From NCBI GenBank assembly GCA_037431425.1, contig GCA_037431425.1_4129.1: 64,000 nucleotides of DNA; one strand, written 5' to 3'. The notes beneath the pieces were generated by a model, which searched no databases, was not told where the DNA came from, and saw only the letters and a list, made by a program, of their open reading frames with translations. Origin of the DNA: a phage. Of this stretch, positions 5,632 to 62,204 are shown piece after piece. Both the position numbers and the translations under genes were made by a program. Each line of letters opens with the position of its first letter. Positions within the stretch are counted from its first letter, which is position 1.

Positions 5632-5832
5632 ATGACAAAAGCAGAACTTGTTGCATTATTGGAATCATACCCTGATGATGCATGTATTGAAATTGTACAT
5701 ACTACACGACATTTTGACATTGAAGATGTAGTACGTTATAATGATAAAGGTGTACTAATCATGGAACTGTGTATTGGTGAAGTGAAAACTGTACCTGAAT
5801 CAGAAAAACGTAAAAAAATTAATCAGGAGTAA
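5632..5832 (+). CDS. hypothetical small protein
   Basis: Track ORF downstream of promoter at 5570; SD-like sequence upstream. Confidence 0.55.
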   Translation: MTKAELVALLESYPDDACIEIVHTTRHFDIEDVVRYNDKGVLIMELCIGEVKTVPESEKRKKINQE

Positions 5833-6114: not shown

Positions 6115-6239
<125 letters not shown>

Positions 6240-6246
6240 CAAAAGA

Positions 6247-6320
6247 CGGGGTATAGCACAATTGGATAGTGCAAGAGAATTCTAATCTCTAGGTTGGGGG
6301 TTCAAGTCCCTCTACCTCGG
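6247..6320 (+). tRNA. tRNA-Arg (anticodon UCU)
   Basis: Hand-folded: acceptor CGGGGTA/TACCTCG (one GU), D-stem GCAC/GTGC, anticodon stem AGAGA/TCTCT loop ATTCTAA, T-loop TTCAAGT. Confidence 0.75.
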
Positions 6321-6344
6321 CCTACTTCAATTAAAGGTTAAACC

Positions 6345-6509
6345 ATGACGCATGAAGAATGGATGAATGACATTAATTTTAGATATGCAGGTATCGGTAA
6401 CTGGAGAAAGTATCATTGGGAAATCATATCAGACCCAGCAGAATACGATAAACTTATGAATCATGAAGTGTATCCGTGGTTCTTTATTGAAATAATGGTA
6501 CGATTATGA
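6345..6509 (+). CDS. small protein, MTHEEWMNDINFRY family, copy 1 (54 aa)
   Basis: Manually found; SD aaaggtta; ATGA overlap with copy 2; near-identical N-terminus across three tandem copies. Confidence 0.5.
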   Translation: MTHEEWMNDINFRYAGIGNWRKYHWEIISDPAEYDKLMNHEVYPWFFIEIMVRL

Positions 6510-6666
6510 CACATGAAGAATGGATGAATGACATTAATTTTAGATATTCGGGTATCGGTAAATGGCTAAAGTATCATTGGGAATTCATTTCAGAGCCACA
6601 TCTGTATGATAAACTTATCAACGATTCTGCATATAAAATGTACTTAATTGAACTACTGGTACGAAC

Positions 6667-6670
<4 letters not shown>
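6506..6670 (+). CDS. small protein, MTHEEWMNDINFRY family, copy 2 (54 aa)
   Basis: Tandem paralog; ATGA overlaps on both sides. Confidence 0.5.
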
Positions 6671-6839
<169 letters not shown>

Positions 6840-6843
6840 AATC

Positions 6844-7284
<441 letters not shown>

Positions 7285-7312
7285 GTATCTTAACAACAGA
7301 AGGTATATTGAA

Positions 7313-7552
7313 ATGGGTAAGTATTTTGTGAGTTATAGTTATAATGTATCACGAAAGATTCCACGCGGTGACGGAATGGGATGGTCTTATGATGCATATA
7401 CTTTAAATGAGTCATGTATCATCGAATTACAAGAAAAAGACCTTGACATTTTAAAAATCAAACAATATATTCTTGATGTTGAATTGGCACATCGTACTGA
7501 TACCTATCCAGATGTAAACAACATCAGCATCTTAGTACTAACCAAAGTATAA
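7313..7552 (+). CDS. hypothetical small protein
   Basis: Track ORF 7283..7552 starts with TTG inside the promoter; ATG at 7313 with SD agaaggta is preferred. Confidence 0.5.
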   Translation: MGKYFVSYSYNVSRKIPRGDGMGWSYDAYTLNESCIIELQEKDLDILKIKQYILDVELAHRTDTYPDVNNISILVLTKV

Positions 7553-7622
7553 GATAAAAAGAACTTTACTAAATAATTCCACTGGAGATTAATATGTTTA
7601 AAGATGAACGTCCAGATTTGTA

Positions 7623-7661
<39 letters not shown>

Positions 7662-7667
7662 GAATTC

Positions 7668-8002
7668 CACAATCAGACGTATATGGTGTAAGTTACGTCG
7701 ATGCTATCCAGAACAAGATCTCTGGTACTCTAGGAAGTGGTGAATGTTAACCTAGACGGGTTTGATAATTGGACGATAGGCAATTATTACTTGACTAGCA
7801 GGTTGAAACTAGAGGTGACAGTCCTTCACCAAACTGGAAAGCCGGATGGACTTTTATTTAAAAGGGTAAGGCGTGGAAATATGTTTACTGTAGTTGCTTT
7901 TAGTAGCCTGTACGCCCCACGTCAAGGTAGTCGAAAGGCAAGTTAAAACGGGTGGTTATAAAGCTGAATTAACAGCGGCGTTTAAAAGCGTCACCATCCA
8001 TT
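7668..8002 (+). ncRNA. candidate structured non-coding transcript (or small basic protein)
   Basis: Promoter 7633..7661 upstream, T8 run at the end; locally GC-richer; track ORF 7737..7946 inside has a GTG start and unconvincing composition. Confidence 0.3.
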
Positions 8003-8023
8003 TTTTTAATTAAAGTTGGCTAT

Positions 8024-8390
<367 letters not shown>

Positions 8391-8401
<11 letters not shown>

Positions 8402-8420
8402 TATTCAGTACTGATATAAT
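8391..8420 (+). promoter_or_regulatory. sigma70-type promoter (TGGACA-N18-TATAAT) upstream of tRNA-Ser(GCU)
   Basis: CAGTACTG then TATAAT, 7 nt before the tRNA 5' end. Confidence 0.55.
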
Positions 8421-8426
8421 TAATTT

Positions 8427-8513
<87 letters not shown>

Positions 8514-8525
8514 TAAATTGTTCCA

Positions 8526-8612
<87 letters not shown>

Positions 8613-8662
8613 CTGATATTGTTATTATATGAGTTCTAACGATAATGAAACACTAGGAACAT

Positions 8663-8833
<171 letters not shown>

Positions 8834-8857
8834 ACGAAATTACAATAGGAAATTAAA

Positions 8858-9043
8858 ATGCAACTTTTAATTCTTTCAATATTGTATATTATTATAATGG
8901 TTCCGATATCAATACGTTTAATTACAGTTGAACGATTTTTATCGAAACATGGAAATAGATCTATGATATTTGTACCAATCGGGTTGATATTGTTTGGTAT
9001 ATTTTCATTTATAATGGGAATTAACGCTACATTCATTTCATAG
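8858..9043 (+). CDS. hypothetical small membrane protein
   Basis: Track ORF; hydrophobic; agga upstream; immediately after the tRNA cluster. Confidence 0.45.
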   Translation: MQLLILSILYIIIMVPISIRLITVERFLSKHGNRSMIFVPIGLILFGIFSFIMGINATFIS

Positions 9044-9052
9044 GAAACAAAT

Positions 9053-9310
<258 letters not shown>

Positions 9311-9412
9311 ATAAAAAGAACGAAAAGTAGACGGTCGTATTCAGTACTGAATCACCAGGGGAGGTTGTGATTCCCGATTCAGTAGCTTAAAAGCAGACCC
9401 GTATGTGCCTAA

Positions 9413-9465
<53 letters not shown>

Positions 9466-9466
9466 T

Positions 9467-9512
<46 letters not shown>

Positions 9513-9513
9513 T

Positions 9514-9647
<134 letters not shown>

Positions 9648-9649
9648 TA

Positions 9650-9833
<184 letters not shown>

Positions 9834-9913
9834 TAAATAATACAGTAAGATGGCCTCCCCTCCATATCATGAGAGTATAGAGACTTGTTGGTTATCTTAC
9901 TTTTAAACAAACT

Positions 9914-9987
9914 GCCTCAATAGCAAAATTGGTAATGCACACGTTTTGTAAGCGTGAGATTTTTCCGTTCGAGTCGGAATTGGGGCA
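9914..9987 (+). tRNA. tRNA-Thr (anticodon UGU), tentative
   Basis: Hand-folded: acceptor GCCTCAA/TTGGGGC (one GU), anticodon stem CACGT/GCGTG loop TTTGTAA, T-arm TTCCG-TTCGAGT-CGGAA; D-arm and variable loop slightly irregular. Confidence 0.55.
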
Positions 9988-10004
9988 CAAAATAAAGGCA
10001 CACT

Positions 10005-33991: not shown

Positions 33992-34024
33992 AGGTTGACT
34001 TCGGTCAGCCTTTTTTGTTATGAT
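33992..34024 (+). promoter_or_regulatory. PeSL-like module 3
   Basis: GGTTGACTTCGGTCAGCC + T6 + TATGAT. Confidence 0.6.
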
Positions 34025-34052: not shown

Positions 34053-34694
34053 ATGACAAAGCAAGAAATATTCAAAACTTTAATTGACATATTACGTCCA
34101 TCTAAATTACGGTGTGCAATGGAGTTTGATATTCCTTATGCTGAACAGGTAATCTTTCCACAAGTGAAATCGGCAGGACTTACGTTACTTGGTATGGGAA
34201 TGTACTCTGTAGTAGTTGAACATAAAAACTATCCAGGTCGTGCATTTAAAGTAACCACGTCACGATGGGATGGTTTTCGTGCTTATGCAAAGTACTGCAT
34301 TGAAAACGCAGGAACTAAATTTCTTCCTGTTATATACAGTGCAAATGAGCAAGGAAACTTCGGCTGGTATGAGATGGATAAGTATTACCCTATAATTAAA
34401 CAAAAAAATAATTACGATGATTTTGTGAGTACTAAAATTGGTGATTTATATTCGTATGCACATGCTGGACAATATGCTTCATCAATATCTAATATGCGTG
34501 GTAGTCCAGAAGAAATTGCTATTGCAACAGTTGTTGCGAACATAATGAAAGAGTTTCATGGTCGTTTTGTACCAGACATTCATTCCAGAAATGTAATGAT
34601 GGACAAAGATGGTAACGTATATATCACAGATCCTATTTCATGTGATGTACGGAGAGAAATACCAATCACACAAGAAGACCCAGTTTTTTATTGA
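34053..34694 (+). CDS. putative protein kinase-like protein
   Basis: Track ORF 34020..34694 (start inside promoter -10; ATG 34053 preferred); DIHSRNVMMDKDGNVYITDP resembles a kinase catalytic loop plus DFG-like segment; GRAFKV resembles the VAIK lysine strand. Confidence 0.55.
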   Translation: MTKQEIFKTLIDILRPSKLRCAMEFDIPYAEQVIFPQVKSAGLTLLGMGMYSVVVEHKNYPGRAFKVTTSRWDGFRAYAKYCIENAGTKFLPVIYSANEQGNFGWYEMDKYYPIIKQKNNYDDFVSTKIGDLYSYAHAGQYASSISNMRGSPEEIAIATVVANIMKEFHGRFVPDIHSRNVMMDKDGNVYITDPISCDVRREIPITQEDPVFY

Positions 34695-34757
34695 CAGAAC
34701 TTTAATACTGTTATATTATTTAAAAATGATAAACGAATTGCATCTAAGGGTAAAATC

Positions 34758-35039
34758 ATGCGTTCATTTGAAAACTTAATCGGAAAAAACCGTTTAGCAG
34801 AAATTGAAGCAGATGTAAAAGAATTGTCACAATCAAAAAGTTATATCCACTTAGATGAACTTTTTATTAAGTACGGTGAAATTGGATTTAAGACACTATT
34901 TGTTTTTACTTTGAAAGTACACAGTTTAAAGTACTTCGATTTAAGTTATAAAAATGGTCAACCGAATCTATATCATATGTATTATCTCAAGAATATAGAA
35001 GAAGCTCATTCCTTATTTTCTGAATATCTGAAGGTATAA
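34758..35039 (+). CDS. hypothetical small protein
   Basis: Track ORF. Confidence 0.5.
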   Translation: MRSFENLIGKNRLAEIEADVKELSQSKSYIHLDELFIKYGEIGFKTLFVFTLKVHSLKYFDLSYKNGQPNLYHMYYLKNIEEAHSLFSEYLKV

Positions 35040-35040
35040 A

Positions 35041-35379
35041 ATGGAACAATATTTTGAATTAATTAATAAAGTGTCATTCTATGTAGTGTCATTGACGTGG
35101 GTTTATTTCATGTTTTGCTACATTATTGCATTCTTCCGATATACTACTTTATATGAACGTATCTATTATGATGCACCAATTTCATTCTTGGTGTTCTGTG
35201 CATGTACGTGGGGAATATTAGAAGTACTGATATGTGGATATAGAACTGATGAATTAAATCTGGTATCGGTATTGACTGGGTTATCACTTGGTGTTATGAT
35301 ATCTTTCTTTCCAGTATGGTTGTTCTTTGAACTGATCCATCGCATTGATGTATGGCGTTCTAATATCCCTGAAAAATAA
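35041..35379 (+). CDS. small two-helix membrane protein, RxxIPE family, copy A1
   Basis: Track ORF; hydrophobic segments; C-terminal WRSNIPEK. Confidence 0.55.
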   Translation: MEQYFELINKVSFYVVSLTWVYFMFCYIIAFFRYTTLYERIYYDAPISFLVFCACTWGILEVLICGYRTDELNLVSVLTGLSLGVMISFFPVWLFFELIHRIDVWRSNIPEK

Positions 35380-35388
35380 GGATTGATA

Positions 35389-35730
35389 ATGATTTTCTAT
35401 ACTAATGCGTTTGCTTATGCTATTGCATCAATCTACATTGTGTACTTCTTATTTGGTGGAGTACTGTACTTCTTTAAGTACAAAACATTGTTTAACCGAA
35501 TGTATCCAAATCACCCAATTGTAGTAGTACTTTTGATAATTTCTGTTGCTCATATCATTGTAGAAACAATAATGGGTATCAGTGCAGTACATTACAGTCT
35601 AGGTACTATTGTAATTATTACTATGATCATAGCATACATTTTAGTAATGGGTTCTGGTTTATTTGGGAATGTAGCAATGAAAATGTATAATCGAATCAAA
35701 ACATTACGTGATAATCTACCGGAGCGTTGA
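35389..35730 (+). CDS. small two-helix membrane protein, RxxIPE family, copy A2
   Basis: Track ORF 35383..35730; ATG 35389 after aagga; C-terminal LRDNLPER. Confidence 0.55.
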   Translation: MIFYTNAFAYAIASIYIVYFLFGGVLYFFKYKTLFNRMYPNHPIVVVLLIISVAHIIVETIMGISAVHYSLGTIVIITMIIAYILVMGSGLFGNVAMKMYNRIKTLRDNLPER

Positions 35731-35731
35731 G

Positions 35732-36076
35732 TTGTATAATTTAAATTTAATATCATATATCATAACAACAATGTTTACTTTCTATGCCTTTGTTGGTATA
35801 ATCCTACTGTACTTTAAATTTTATAAAGTCTTTGACCGTTTATTTCCATCATTGGAACATGAATTCTTAGTGGTGATGTACATATGTTTAACGTGTATGT
35901 CTACATTTTTCACTGTATTTGATGGTATCATCGGTATTAAAGCTGAAGATCCAAATGGAAGTACACTTGTTGCCTTTATCCTGGTAGGATTCTTCGGCAC
36001 TTATATCACTTTCATTTCAACATGGTCTGTGGTTGATTATCTCATTAGATTACGAGATAAAATGCCAAATCGATAG
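35732..36076 (+). CDS. small two-helix membrane protein, RxxIPE family, copy A3
   Basis: Track ORF 35708..36076; TTG start at 35732 inferred from paralog alignment and ggag SD; C-terminal LRDKMPNR. Confidence 0.45.
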   Translation: MYNLNLISYIITTMFTFYAFVGIILLYFKFYKVFDRLFPSLEHEFLVVMYICLTCMSTFFTVFDGIIGIKAEDPNGSTLVAFILVGFFGTYITFISTWSVVDYLIRLRDKMPNR

Positions 36077-36085
36077 GGGATTGCT

Positions 36086-36343
36086 ATGTTTGCATTGCGT
36101 AATAAAAATACAAAAGAGATTCTATGTATCTCAGCAGTATGGGATTGTGCAGGAAGTGAAATGATCCTCGAAGAAGGTTCAGGTGATTGTGTTTATGTTG
36201 TTCAGGATCGTCGTGAACTTGAATCATTACTTGATGAATTTAATGCTGGTGGTAATCCTAAAAGTACTGAATTCCCTGTGATTATTAATCCAGCACCACC
36301 TGGTTCTTATGAAATTCTACAACTGTGGGAGATGGATAAGTAA
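36086..36343 (+). CDS. hypothetical small protein
   Basis: Track ORF. Confidence 0.5.
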   Translation: MFALRNKNTKEILCISAVWDCAGSEMILEEGSGDCVYVVQDRRELESLLDEFNAGGNPKSTEFPVIINPAPPGSYEILQLWEMDK

Positions 36344-36723
36344 TGCGTCAAATGTACAAAGTAACCGAGCTAAACAAGCGTCTGATTAAACAATCAATGT
36401 TCGAGGACAAAGAGTCTTATTATAACTTTAAACGTGCTGTAGAGGCTGCTATCCATATCCAGAAGCTTAAAGATAGTGGTTGTATTATTCTCGAAAATGG
36501 TTCTGATGTTGTAACGGATGACTTTAGTGTAGCGTTTGATGTTTCACCAGATGGTATACTATCAATGCCACGATTAGGAACTGGAAACATGACTGTTTGG
36601 GTCGGCTTCACTATGGGTAATGTACCAGACACGGTGTATGTAGATGATATTGAGTTGAAAGAAAGCTTCAAAAACTTATCTTATCTTGAACCACAATACG
36701 CACATGAAATGAATTTATTTTGA
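36343..36723 (+). CDS. hypothetical protein
   Basis: Track ORF; ATGA-type overlap. Confidence 0.5.
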   Translation: MRQMYKVTELNKRLIKQSMFEDKESYYNFKRAVEAAIHIQKLKDSGCIILENGSDVVTDDFSVAFDVSPDGILSMPRLGTGNMTVWVGFTMGNVPDTVYVDDIELKESFKNLSYLEPQYAHEMNLF

Positions 36724-36724
36724 G

Positions 36725-36752
36725 TTGACAAACAGATTTAGTACTGTATAAT
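36725..36752 (+). promoter_or_regulatory. sigma70-type promoter (TTGACA-N16-TATAAT)
   Basis: Consensus; TAGTACTG immediately upstream of -10. Confidence 0.7.
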
Positions 36753-36799
36753 GTTTACCAACGGGATGAATTTCCCATCCCTACTATCGAGGAATTACC

Positions 36800-37354
36800 A
36801 TGATTACTTTTAAGAAAACAGCTAACCATATCCATGAAATTTACATTAACGGTCATAAAGCTGGGCTTCTTCGCTTACTGGCACATCATCCTAATGTAGA
36901 CGTATCTGATAATGAACCTAAAGATTGGCGTGTCTTTTTCTTTGGAAAGTACAGTGATTTTCAAGTATCAAATCTGAAGAAGATTCGTTCAGTATGCACG
37001 TTAACTGAAATTAAAGAAAAGTTAGCAGAAGCACTGAAAACCAATCCAGATGGAATCCTTCCTCCTGATAACTTTGTAGATAAAGGTTATGCTTTAGCTC
37101 ATTTCAAAGATGGTACTATTCAATCTATTAGTACTGAATATGAATATCAATGGACTGAGTACTTCACTTATGGCTCACCTAATACATTGATGGCTTCACG
37201 TAGTAAATTGGAAGAAGTACTGACACGTATTAATGAACGCGAGCGTCAGTTCTATGACAAACCAGAAATGTGGAGTTCAACTCACATTGACCGTATTGAC
37301 TATGTTATTATGACTCCAATCTTTAACACTGCTTACTATGATTCTTTGAAATAA
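36800..37354 (+). CDS. hypothetical protein
   Basis: Track ORF downstream of promoter 36725..36752; SD gaggaa. Confidence 0.6.
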   Translation: MITFKKTANHIHEIYINGHKAGLLRLLAHHPNVDVSDNEPKDWRVFFFGKYSDFQVSNLKKIRSVCTLTEIKEKLAEALKTNPDGILPPDNFVDKGYALAHFKDGTIQSISTEYEYQWTEYFTYGSPNTLMASRSKLEEVLTRINERERQFYDKPEMWSSTHIDRIDYVIMTPIFNTAYYDSLK

Positions 37355-37365
37355 GGATAACTTAT

Positions 37366-37542
37366 ATGAAACTACGTACTCGTAATCGCCTGATGGATGC
37401 ACTGTACCATGAACAGTATTCATTAAATGAAGTAAAGAGACAGTTAATGTATACATATCAGTTACCTGCCCGTGCTGCGAAACAACGTGCTAAAGAATTA
37501 CTGAAAGAAGCTATCGAGTACTGGGAGTCTGATTCGTATTAA
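37366..37542 (+). CDS. hypothetical small protein (58 aa)
   Basis: Manually found; SD aaggata upstream. Confidence 0.4.
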   Translation: MKLRTRNRLMDALYHEQYSLNEVKRQLMYTYQLPARAAKQRAKELLKEAIEYWESDSY

Positions 37543-37581
37543 TATTACGTGATATGTCACATTAATTAAGTGAGACGATAA

Positions 37582-37833
37582 ATGAAAATTTTATTAGTTC
37601 TAATACTACTAATTGTTTTACCATTTACTTTAGTATCTCCTGAACTTGCATGGAATGTGTTTGTGTACTTGGTATGTACTATTGCGGTAAATGGTATCTT
37701 GTTCTTAGTTCTATTCATAAATGGAATAGGACACGGTGGTGGATGGACCAGTACTGCTAATATTGTACATAAAACCACTATGTCTTTATTTGTAGTGTGG
37801 AATTTATTCTGGACTTGGTTTGTGTTCTTCTAA
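37582..37833 (+). CDS. hypothetical membrane protein
   Basis: Track ORF; hydrophobic throughout. Confidence 0.5.
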   Translation: MKILLVLILLIVLPFTLVSPELAWNVFVYLVCTIAVNGILFLVLFINGIGHGGGWTSTANIVHKTTMSLFVVWNLFWTWFVFF

Positions 37834-37841
37834 TTAAAAAT

Positions 37842-38213
37842 ATGAATATAGATTTGAAAGGTTCAACACGAACTGTTATCCTTATTGGTGATTATGCTAT
37901 TAAGATTCCAACCTTTAAAAGTTGGAAGTTATTCCTAACTGGAATGATAGCGAACCTCAATGAACGTTCATGGATGCAGTACTCCAATCGTAGTGATAGT
38001 GGAATATCCCCTACGCTGTGGTCCTCTCGTACTGGTTTAATAACAATACAGAAACGTTGTAAACCTGTACAACATAGGGGTTTATTTTGGGTTGAGTTGT
38101 GTGCGTTGGCATCAAAATCAGAGTTGAATACTGACTTCTTCTATTCAGATGCGAAGCCAGAAAACTTTGGGTATCTGTGTGGTAAGTTGGTTAAACTTGA
38201 TTATGGAGATTAA
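37842..38213 (+). CDS. putative small protein kinase-like protein
   Basis: Track ORF 37797..38213 trimmed to ATG 37842; SDAKPENFG...LVKLDYGD resembles a kinase catalytic loop plus DFG; IGDYAIKIP is VAIK-like. Confidence 0.5.
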   Translation: MNIDLKGSTRTVILIGDYAIKIPTFKSWKLFLTGMIANLNERSWMQYSNRSDSGISPTLWSSRTGLITIQKRCKPVQHRGLFWVELCALASKSELNTDFFYSDAKPENFGYLCGKLVKLDYGD

Positions 38214-38214
38214 T

Positions 38215-38484
38215 ATGTACGCATTGTATAATAAAGAAAAGAAACGATTTGCTAAGGTTGAAATTTCGATTGATACATTTGACATGTTGGAGTACTGTAT
38301 TGTAACGGATTTATATGCTAACTTGTATTACGTTCTTGATGACGTATCAGTACTGCAACGATTGCTTGAGAATTCCAAAAGTCAATGCCAGGGCATCTAT
38401 GATGGTTCATCTTATGAAACACCTGAGTGTTCCTACGGCTATCTGGACGGGTATGAGATTGTGAAGTTGGGGATTGTTGAATAA
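38215..38484 (+). CDS. hypothetical small protein
   Basis: Track ORF 38149..38484; ATG 38215 after ggagatt is preferred. Confidence 0.45.
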   Translation: MYALYNKEKKRFAKVEISIDTFDMLEYCIVTDLYANLYYVLDDVSVLQRLLENSKSQCQGIYDGSSYETPECSYGYLDGYEIVKLGIVE

Positions 38485-38496
38485 ATGGATTAAACA

Positions 38497-38910
38497 ATGA
38501 AGAAGTGTATCACGTGTAATATTGAAAAAGACATTAGTGAATTTGGTATAAGAAAAGATACTGGGAAACATAGAAATACATGCAAAGGTTGTAGTAATAT
38601 TACCAGTAAGAAAACCAGAAATAAAAAAACTGATGTCAAAAAACTTGAAGAAATCAAAAGAAAAAATAAAGATTTCATGTCCAGAGTTAAATCATTTTAT
38701 GGTTGTAGTATTTGTATGATGAAGTATCCAGAATGTTTAGACTTTCATCATCTTGATCCGAATATCAAAGAACATACACCAAGTTCTATGTTCAGTAAAA
38801 GTCGAGATGCTATCAAAGATGAAATTCGAAAGTGTATGATTCTTTGTTCTAATCATCATCGCATGGTCCATTCTGGAAGACTATGCTTAATTGAAAGAAA
38901 AAAGGGTTGA
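38497..38910 (+). CDS. HNH endonuclease-like protein (homing-endonuclease-like)
   Basis: Track ORF; CxxC...CxxC and DFHHLDP...CSNHHRMVH fit an HNH/zinc-finger motif. Confidence 0.6.
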   Translation: MKKCITCNIEKDISEFGIRKDTGKHRNTCKGCSNITSKKTRNKKTDVKKLEEIKRKNKDFMSRVKSFYGCSICMMKYPECLDFHHLDPNIKEHTPSSMFSKSRDAIKDEIRKCMILCSNHHRMVHSGRLCLIERKKG

Positions 38911-62000: not shown

Positions 62001-62204
62001 TGTGTCCGGCTTATGTAGTAATTATACGCTTTTTCAGTACTGAGTCAATACCTAAAAACAAAATAATTGAAAATAATTTAACGCGTTTAAACGGCCCGTA
62101 AAGCCCTGGAATGATTAGAATGGTGCAAATGTATAGCTTAGGTGTAATATCTCGTTAGAATGCGACTGAGGCCGTTTTACGGGGTATAGGGATGATTTAG
62201 TGGA

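Follow-up and report, generated by a model that had tools for sequence, protein, structure and literature searches.

Can a kinase fold that has nothing past its DFG motif still carry out phosphotransfer? This question of enzymology is raised by one of two short genes in a 64,000-nucleotide stretch of phage DNA (GenBank assembly GCA_037431425.1, contig GCA_037431425.1_4129.1; the whole stretch is hereafter called ‘the window’), where the initial annotation had pointed to two small kinase-like open reading frames (ORFs). Both are present, with products of 213 and 123 amino acids, and are referred to here as ORF1 and ORF2:

34053..34694, + strand: ORF1, from ATG 34053 to stop 34694, 213 amino acids; a kinase domain of the T7K (T7 gp0.7) family, without the shutoff/DNA-binding domain
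34191-34199 (G47/G49), 34248-34250 (K66), 34575-34577 (D175), 34590-34592 (N180) and 34629-34634 (D193-P194), + strand: key residues of ORF1
37842..38213, + strand: ORF2, from ATG 37842 to stop 38213, 123 amino acids; a putative minimal protein-kinase-like core, ending one residue after DYG
37902-37904 (K21), 37962-37964 (E41), 38148-38150 (D103), 38163-38165 (N108) and 38199-38207 (D120-Y-G122), + strand: key residues of ORF2, together with G7-x-T9-R10 and K105

Taking our findings together, we propose, with a probability of about 0.55, that ORF1 and ORF2 are truncated protein-kinase-like enzymes of independent origin, made from host-type promoters and acting in the manner set out below. For ORF2, the likeliest reading is that of a constitutively active minimal kinase, working on host proteins early in infection. 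ORF1, as judged from its sequence, is a homologue of the T7 gp0.7 kinase; this is already known and not a discovery, and the gene adds nothing new, being a further copy of a reported jumbophage T7K homologue.

An AlphaFold2 model of ORF2, made from a 12-sequence alignment, has a predicted local distance difference test score (pLDDT) of 88.1 and a predicted template modelling score (pTM) of 0.77, and can be read against the elements of a kinase as follows:

residues 10-15 and 18-23 (the latter with K21): strands, beta2-beta3
residues 28-43 (with E41): helix, helix C
residues 58-61 and 68-71: strands, beta4-beta5
residues 79-92: helix, helix E
residues 97-101: short helix, catalytic loop region
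residues 109-112 and 115-118, followed by D120-Y-G: strands, beta7-beta8 and DFG

The model thus contains the core of the protein-kinase-like (PKL) fold (N-lobe sheet, helix C, helix E, catalytic loop, beta7-beta8 and DFG), and the sequence contains its conserved catalytic set (Lys, Glu, Asp, Asn and the DFG Asp); what is absent is the C-lobe after DFG, with its activation segment, APE motif and helices F-I. As ORF2 ends after DYG, and has no match to the Pkinase family of Pfam (PF00069), it would not be a canonical eukaryotic protein kinase, only a member of the wider fold class. The initial annotation had made its case depend on a kinase-fold prediction, and one is obtained for both ORFs, the AlphaFold2 model of ORF1 having a pLDDT of 93.5.

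Structural neighbours of the ORF2 model (scores in brackets) are JAK (7.5), Bud32 (7.5), the RNA kinase Ark1 (7.3), TTK (7.3) and BRAF (7.2), followed by PknB (6.9), APH(2'') (6.9), Rio2 (6.8) and OspG (6.3); SAICAR synthetase also appears, as expected for a core that is common to kinases and ATP-grasp-like folds. A Foldseek comparison against BFVD, a check that had been recommended at the outset, ranks uncharacterised phage proteins first, with annotated viral kinases coming next: a ‘Protein kinase domain-containing protein’ of Ralstonia phage RP12, giant-virus Ser/Thr kinases, and kinases of T7-like phages (E 4e-3 for that of phage fPS-53). At the level of sequence, the tie is made by a 142-member family profile, which against PDB sequences returns only the TTK kinase at the top (E 0.01); here the profile segment ‘vDaKPeNfGyl..rlvkiDYG’ (D103-K-P-x-N108 ... 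D120-Y-G) lies in register with HSDLKPANF...DFG of human TTK, its HRD/DFG segments, in an alignment that spans helix E, catalytic loop and DFG. A few family members weakly match the kinase Pfam families PIP49_C and ABC1, and relatives of ORF2 carry a Ser/Thr kinase annotation in two GenBank records (Kosakonia phage Kc263, and gp128 of Erwinia phage AH04, of 163 amino acids).

It might be argued that the kinase motifs are coincidental, or an artefact of modelling, and that ORF2 has an unrelated fold and function; the protein has no significant match to Pfam, NCBIfam or PADLOC models, and PDB sequence searches with the single ORF2 sequence or a 12-sequence profile gave no match. Set against this are the family invariants at kinase catalytic positions, the confident model, the alignment to TTK in register, the annotated kinases among the BFVD neighbours and the two GenBank records, which together make coincidence or artefact highly improbable; on the strength of the predicted structure, ORF2 almost certainly has a kinase fold.

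The PHROGs family to which ORF2 belongs is phrog_4301 (E 5e-41), which has no function assigned to it. Twelve relatives turned up in a word-seeded search, 118-127 amino acids long except for one truncated copy of 102; an exhaustive profile search, covering 1.84 billion representatives of 50% identity clusters, found 1,170 family proteins at E up to 1e-3 and 599 at E up to 1e-10, almost all of 110-135 amino acids and with the end of the profile coinciding with the end of the protein. A second profile search gave 495 proteins, and among the 120 listed none has a Pfam domain and the sole name is ‘hypothetical protein’. In an alignment of 157 sequences, reaching down to ~30% identity, the key positions are occupied as follows:

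K21, E41 and D120: 157/157
G7, R10, P23, G34, N38 and G110: at least 154/157
D103: D in 99, E in 56
K105: 137/157
N108: N in 103, S in 50
Y121: 143/157

The family consensus for the catalytic loop is D/E-x-K-x-x-N/S, with ORF2 itself having D103, K105 and N108, along with D120. The motifs by which ORF2 had first been singled out are therefore well chosen, the Lys of ‘AIK’ (K21) and the Asp of ‘DYG’ (D120) being present in every sequence and the catalytic loop being mostly kept.

Equally consistent is the point at which the proteins end. The chain stops 0-1 residue past D-Y-G in 117/157 sequences, and the longer C-terminal tails of the minority are mutually unalignable, with no APE motif or other C-lobe feature. 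The idea that ORF2 derives from a longer kinase, as a fragment or a pseudogene, was considered and rejected, in that unrelated phages keep the same length and end point and dN/dS (the ratio of non-synonymous to synonymous substitution rates) is 0.08; nor is there support for a split kinase with its C-lobe encoded by the next gene (38215-38484), as the downstream gene varies by lineage and no neighbour is kept in 16 loci. The wording ‘minimal or atypical’, as used for both proteins in the initial annotation, is apt: each stops at or shortly after its DFG equivalent, and neither has an activation segment or the helices of a C-lobe. In the ORF2 family, the ATP- and Mg-binding residues are kept by more than 1,000 clusters that are without helix F onward, the part usually seen as the organising scaffold. 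We know of no kinase-like protein smaller than this family of ~120 residues that stops at a DFG-like motif; it has been glimpsed by annotators but is apparently undescribed, a literature search for phage mini-kinase families, as far as it reached, having turned up none. The family is unannotated, and ORF2 is apparently an extreme new variant of the kinase fold.

We suggest the following model for how ORF2 might work. The protein would be a bare catalytic core, made up of a Gly-x-Thr-Arg loop, the ATP-anchoring pair Lys21-Glu41, a hinge, helix E, Asp103-x-Lys-Pro-x-Asn108 and the Mg-binding Asp120-Tyr-Gly. The Lys-Glu pair, the Asp/Lys/Asn of the loop and the Asp of DYG would bind Mg-ATP, hold it in position and take a proton from the acceptor, and the near-invariant Thr/Ser9-Arg10 of the Gly-rich loop could touch the phosphates of ATP. 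Because the ATP/Mg residue set is retained and invariant, ORF2 would be expected to bind Mg-ATP and transfer its phosphate, and because catalytic residues are kept over >1,000 clusters, catalysis rather than mere binding is suggested for the family; going by these residues, ATP-dependent phosphotransfer by ORF2 is probable, and that its substrates are proteins is close to an even bet, if slightly on the doubtful side. Since the activation segment, the P+1 loop and helices F-I are all missing, ORF2 would not be open to regulation in the manner of a canonical kinase. It would also have no peptide-docking surface, and might either be a promiscuous enzyme that is permanently ‘on’, or need a host protein, its target as well, to complete it.

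Comparison with known kinases bears out how little is left. Canonical kinases (TTK/Mps1, PknB) match ORF2 in the order of catalytic residues (Gly-rich loop, beta3 Lys, helix C Glu, D-x-K-P-x-N and D-[FY]-G), whereas ORF2, at ~45% of the length of the canonical domain, has no activation segment, APE motif, helices F-I or helix D. The bacterial effector kinases OspG and NleH (and HopBF1) are of at least 170-200 residues and keep C-lobe helices past DFG, whereas ORF2 ends at its DFG equivalent. Similarly, Bud32/PRPK, RIO and the archaeal RNA kinases Ark1/ArkI, of 170-260 residues, have helices past DFG, and are only 11-14% identical to ORF2; Bud32 works within KEOPS and Ark1 on tRNA, but ORF2 is tied to neither by neighbourhood data. 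As for T7K, the likeness to ORF2 lies only in the truncated-core architecture, plus a weak structural match, and no sequence relation between the two is detectable.

Several points weigh against our proposal for ORF2. To our knowledge, no kinase without helix F and C-lobe has ever been shown to be active, and the catalytic loop of ORF2 may need a partner to hold it in place. The tie to kinases at the level of sequence is marginal, resting on the E-value of 0.01 for TTK, and none of the domain and defence-system model collections named above recognises the protein. Closest among its structural neighbours are some that are not protein kinases (the RNA kinase Ark1, APH), as well as the ATPase-like Bud32. 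Lastly, one third of the family has Glu for the catalytic Asp and Ser for the Mg-binding Asn, which is odd for protein kinases.

Some of these same observations could be taken to mean that ORF2 is an active phosphotransferase with a non-protein substrate: RNA or tRNA (as for the 2'-OH tRNA kinases Ark1/ArkI), a nucleotide or signalling molecule, or a small molecule (as for APH, choline and Kdo kinases). Such substrates need little C-lobe, and ORF2 is without the whole peptide-binding lobe; that a third of the family has the E...S form of the catalytic loop would fit, as would two settings in which the gene is found, namely that the homologue in phage NC-G overlaps an RNA ligase gene and that in Escherichia phage Bas45 sits ~0.9 kb from a tRNA cluster. 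However, a tRNA gene is found in the flanks of only 2/13 loci, on which ground we rejected a general RNA/tRNA link of the family by neighbourhood, and no neighbour is conserved; moreover, D-x-K-P-x-N and DYG are motifs of the kind seen in protein kinases, and it is a protein kinase, TTK, that gives the best match in sequence. A more specific lead, from matches in M6-like and PaMx11-like Pseudomonas phages, was to the 5-hydroxymethyluracil DNA kinase (5-HMUDK) of thymidine-hypermodifying phages (PMC5889632), and this too was rejected. M6 gp54 is unrelated to ORF2 (hhalign probability 0.2%), and in M6 the ORF2 family is represented by gp081, ~15 kb from the hypermodification gene cluster; ORF2 thus has neither the homology to M6 gp54 / ViI gp67 nor the place in such a cluster that would mark a 5-HMUDK. 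On balance we consider a non-protein substrate unlikely.

A further alternative is that ORF2 does not transfer phosphate to a substrate at all, and is instead a nucleotide-binding switch, an ATPase or a pseudokinase-like binder (compare Bud32 in KEOPS) that blocks or remodels a host protein. That ORF2 has neither a substrate-binding lobe nor helix F suggests docking to a partner; OspG, a minimal kinase among the structural matches, requires the host E2~ubiquitin conjugate for activation, and the catalytic Asp is replaced by Glu in 56/157 sequences. Pseudokinases usually lose at least one of the catalytic residues, though, whereas in the ORF2 family Lys21, Glu41 and Asp120 are without exception, the loop Lys is kept in 137/157 and Asp or Glu in 155/157, a pattern typical of active enzymes; and no partner gene is conserved in phage genomes (16 loci). 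The pseudokinase-like binder, which the initial annotation had offered as an alternative, is accordingly made less likely by the absolute conservation of Lys, Glu and Asp, and we hold a role as switch or binder to be slightly less probable than one on a non-protein substrate.

Where the gene is found also bears on what a constitutively active ORF2 kinase might be for. By tblastn, the family is present in 122 phage records, taking in all Asteriusvirus relatives, other jumbo phages (Aeromonas PS1, Klebsiella Miami, Kosakonia Kc263, Erwinia AH04 and Ralstonia RP12), T4-like phages (among them Bas45 ‘PaulHMueller’ of the BASEL phages), Escherichia phage A7_1 (145 kb, from this size putatively rV5-like), Salmonella phage SWJM-02 (85 kb, from this size putatively FelixO1-like), M6-like and PaMx11-like Pseudomonas siphoviruses, and lambdoid phages. 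Its settings are varied:

Salmonella prophages: homologue by itself, with the Rz lysis gene on one side and the Nu1 terminase gene on the other
Aeromonas-type phages: homologue among nrd genes
Bas45 (Escherichia phage PaulHMueller), 3501-3881 of the locus L013: bas45_0262, annotated as hypothetical, between ipI and the tRNA cluster
phage NC-G: homologue overlapping the start of the RNA ligase gene
one viral contig: homologue inserted between head-closure and neck genes

When all ORFs flanking the gene in 16 ORF2-family loci were clustered, no neighbour proved to be conserved across lineages, and ORF2 therefore acts, we would suggest, by itself or together with host factors. The gene is a mobile accessory that stands alone, and its scattered, ‘moron’-like distribution fits a role in host takeover, anti-defence or (in prophages) exclusion, and not a core phage function.

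Should a C-lobe-free kinase of this sort prove active, the ORF2 family would show how little structure the kinase fold needs for phosphotransfer, and phages would phosphorylate their hosts far more commonly than annotations now suggest. Among the BASEL phages, the only kinases reported are T7K homologues and P1 Doc (PMC13645617); Bas45, a T4-like member of that collection, has an ORF2-family gene, and the family appears to have been overlooked by this 2026 study. As a phage of E. coli K-12, Bas45 offers a tractable system. We would go further only as speculation, and think it rather doubtful, that phrog_4301 comprises the smallest natural active protein kinases, C-lobe-free and always on, which serve phages of many lineages (jumbo phages, T4-like phages such as Bas45, and lambdoid prophages among them) as a portable, broad-spectrum tool for anti-defence or takeover and represent a second, independent invention of the T7K strategy.

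ORF1 is the more readily placed of the two. It matches phrog_15752 (PHROGs, E 5e-87), whose annotation is transferred from T7 gp0.7, and more weakly phrog_2828, ‘serine-threonine kinase’ (E 1.5e-16). BLASTP aligns it to T7 gp0.7 at 4e-9, a hidden Markov model built from ORF1 relatives finds T7 gp0.7 at 3.9e-16, and hhalign pairs ORF1 residues 34-202 with T7K 61-222 (probability 98.4%, E 4e-15). ‘Protein kinase’ is already the GenBank name for ORF1 relatives, and all of its homologues carry the precomputed Pfam accession PF27024; ORF1 itself gave no match when compared with a copy of Pfam that lacks PF27024. G47, G49, K66, D175, H177, N180, D193 and P194 are invariant in 22 homologues, down to 37% identity, and these columns include the motifs originally picked out, namely the Lys of the RAFKV strand (K66), the catalytic loop and the equivalent of DFG.

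The homology spans the whole kinase domain of T7K, a family that includes JSS1_004, the kinases of Bas64-68 and those of the jumbophages G17 and Munch. T7K and ORF1 both have the Gly of the Gly-rich loop, the Lys, a D-x-H-x-x-N loop and a DP-type motif for DFG, with no canonical C-lobe; G49 of ORF1 pairs with T7K G76, mutation of which to Phe gives a catalytically dead enzyme (PMC13645617), and D193-P194-I195 pairs with D213-P214-V215, which replaces DFG in T7K. Sequence homology and catalytic residues thus both place ORF1 in the T7K family; unlike T7K, it lacks the C-terminal shutoff/DNA-binding domain, the chain ending ~20 residues past the DP motif and the alignment halting at residue 222 of the 359 in T7K. 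That domain is dispensable for T7K kinase activity (PMC13645617).

T7K and its Autographiviridae homologues are described as hyperpromiscuous anti-defence kinases in a 2026 Nature paper (PMC13645617), which also lists jumbophage homologues without the shutoff domain, including that of phage G17, whose genome is ~88% identical to the DNA around the two genes here. By homology, ORF1, as a T7K-type kinase domain alone, most likely phosphorylates a wide set of host proteins, and perhaps phage proteins too, on Ser/Thr/Tyr. It would be unregulated, having a DP-type ‘always-on’ motif in place of DFG, and would not be targeted to DNA, since it is without the shutoff domain that steers T7K to nucleic-acid-binding proteins. 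It counts against this part of our proposal that the same paper states the function and promiscuity of the jumbophage homologues to be unknown (PMC13645617).

As a side observation, the third residue of the DP motif is I or L, not V, in the ORF1 clade, and the published account likewise has the third DPV residue differing in jumbophage homologues, while stating Ser216 to be conserved in all variants (PMC13645617). This serine, the site of inhibitory autophosphorylation in T7K, pairs with S196 of ORF1, but is Gly or Ala in most jumbophage relatives; the jumbophage clade may therefore be an exception to this claim of conservation.

With two kinase-like genes so close together, common descent is an obvious thought. 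ORF1 and ORF2 as paralogues were, however, rejected, profile-profile comparisons giving no significant or in-register alignment; ORF2 is the shorter by 90 residues and, unlike ORF1, shows the classical arrangement D-x-K-P-x-N ... D-Y-G. From these comparisons the two appear to be independent kinase-fold lineages, and no further paralogue of either family was found in the window.

Both genes belong to a 4.7-kb stretch that is 98.6% identical to Escherichia phage ph0011 and ~88% identical to 121Q, PBECO4, phAPEC6, G17 and other Asteriusvirus jumbo phages (~350 kb); all genes in this part of the window lie on the + strand. The DNA is that of a jumbo coliphage of the Asteriusvirus type. Compared with phage 121Q, dN/dS is 0.048 for ORF1 and 0.079 for ORF2, and we therefore take both to be real genes under purifying selection. 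The gene call for ORF2 is identical in the ph0011 and 121Q annotations. For ORF1, an alternative upstream ATG at 34020 is chosen in the 121Q annotation; we favour 34053 because 20/22 homologues start at the MTKxEIF position, and because a promoter-like -10 element (34019-34024) sits downstream of 34020. The ph0011 annotation of the ORF1 gene stops 18 nucleotides short of the end of ORF1 here.

It remains to ask when the two genes might be expressed. Consensus sigma70 promoters (TTGACW-N16-18-TATAAT) number 20 in the window against 0.34 expected, with 19/20 on the + (gene) strand, a richness that points to a long region transcribed by the host RNA polymerase, and hence early. The elements of most relevance to ORF1 and ORF2 are:

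33993..34024, + strand: hairpin and sigma70-like promoter module (GGTTGACTTCGGTCAGCC, T-run, TATGAT), directly upstream of ORF1; 10/12 with TG in the promoter scan
36725..36752, + strand: perfect sigma70 promoter, TTGACA-16-TATAAT, 12/12, heading a tightly packed, co-oriented run of genes (36800-38484) that includes ORF2
29861, 32655, 33993, 38905, 42309 and 42880, + strand: hairpin-promoter modules

The module consists of GGTTGACTTCGGTCAGCC, a T-run and a -10 hexamer, and its six copies in the window compare with 0 expected; from its 18-nucleotide hairpin, GGTTGAC-TTCG-GTCAGCC, it looks like an intrinsic terminator with the -35 box of the next promoter in its stem, that is, a terminator-promoter cassette bounding gene modules. 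The copy upstream of ORF1 ends 29 nucleotides before the ORF1 start. The 36725 promoter is conserved in 121Q (position 5744 of the locus L002), no convincing terminator was found between it and ORF2, and the last codons of ORF2 (TAT GGA GAT) contain a GGAG that closely precedes the following start codon, ATG 38215. The ‘early region’ of the initial annotation is, then, plausible, given the enrichment of promoters on the + strand and the sites upstream of both genes; the promoters are what is observed, and from them it is reasonable to infer transcription of ORF1 and ORF2 by the host RNA polymerase, and hence early expression.

Across the window more broadly, the consensus sigma70 promoters span 1072-42911 and 61028 (+ strand), with 62021-62048 on the - strand. 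A subclass with the extended motif CAGTACTGTATAAT occurs at 7253, 24139, 36725 and 61028, with one-base variants at 6844, 7633 and 28094.

Other features of the neighbourhood are as follows:

35041-36076, + strand: three tandem paralogous ORFs of ~112-122 amino acids, between ORF1 and ORF2; hydrophobic and probably membrane proteins
38497-38910, + strand: HNH-type endonuclease-like ORF of 137 amino acids, with cysteine pairs and an HH...H motif
6153-9988, + strand region: six phage tRNA genes (Ser-tga, Arg-tct, Ser-gct, Met/Ile-cat, Asn-gtt and Thr-tgt)

The three tandem paralogues have a common C-terminal ending, R-x-x-[IM]P-x-[KR], and are hypothetical in related phages. The HNH-like ORF is also found in ph0011, with 121Q having an endonuclease V gene at the equivalent position, and is probably a mobile homing endonuclease.

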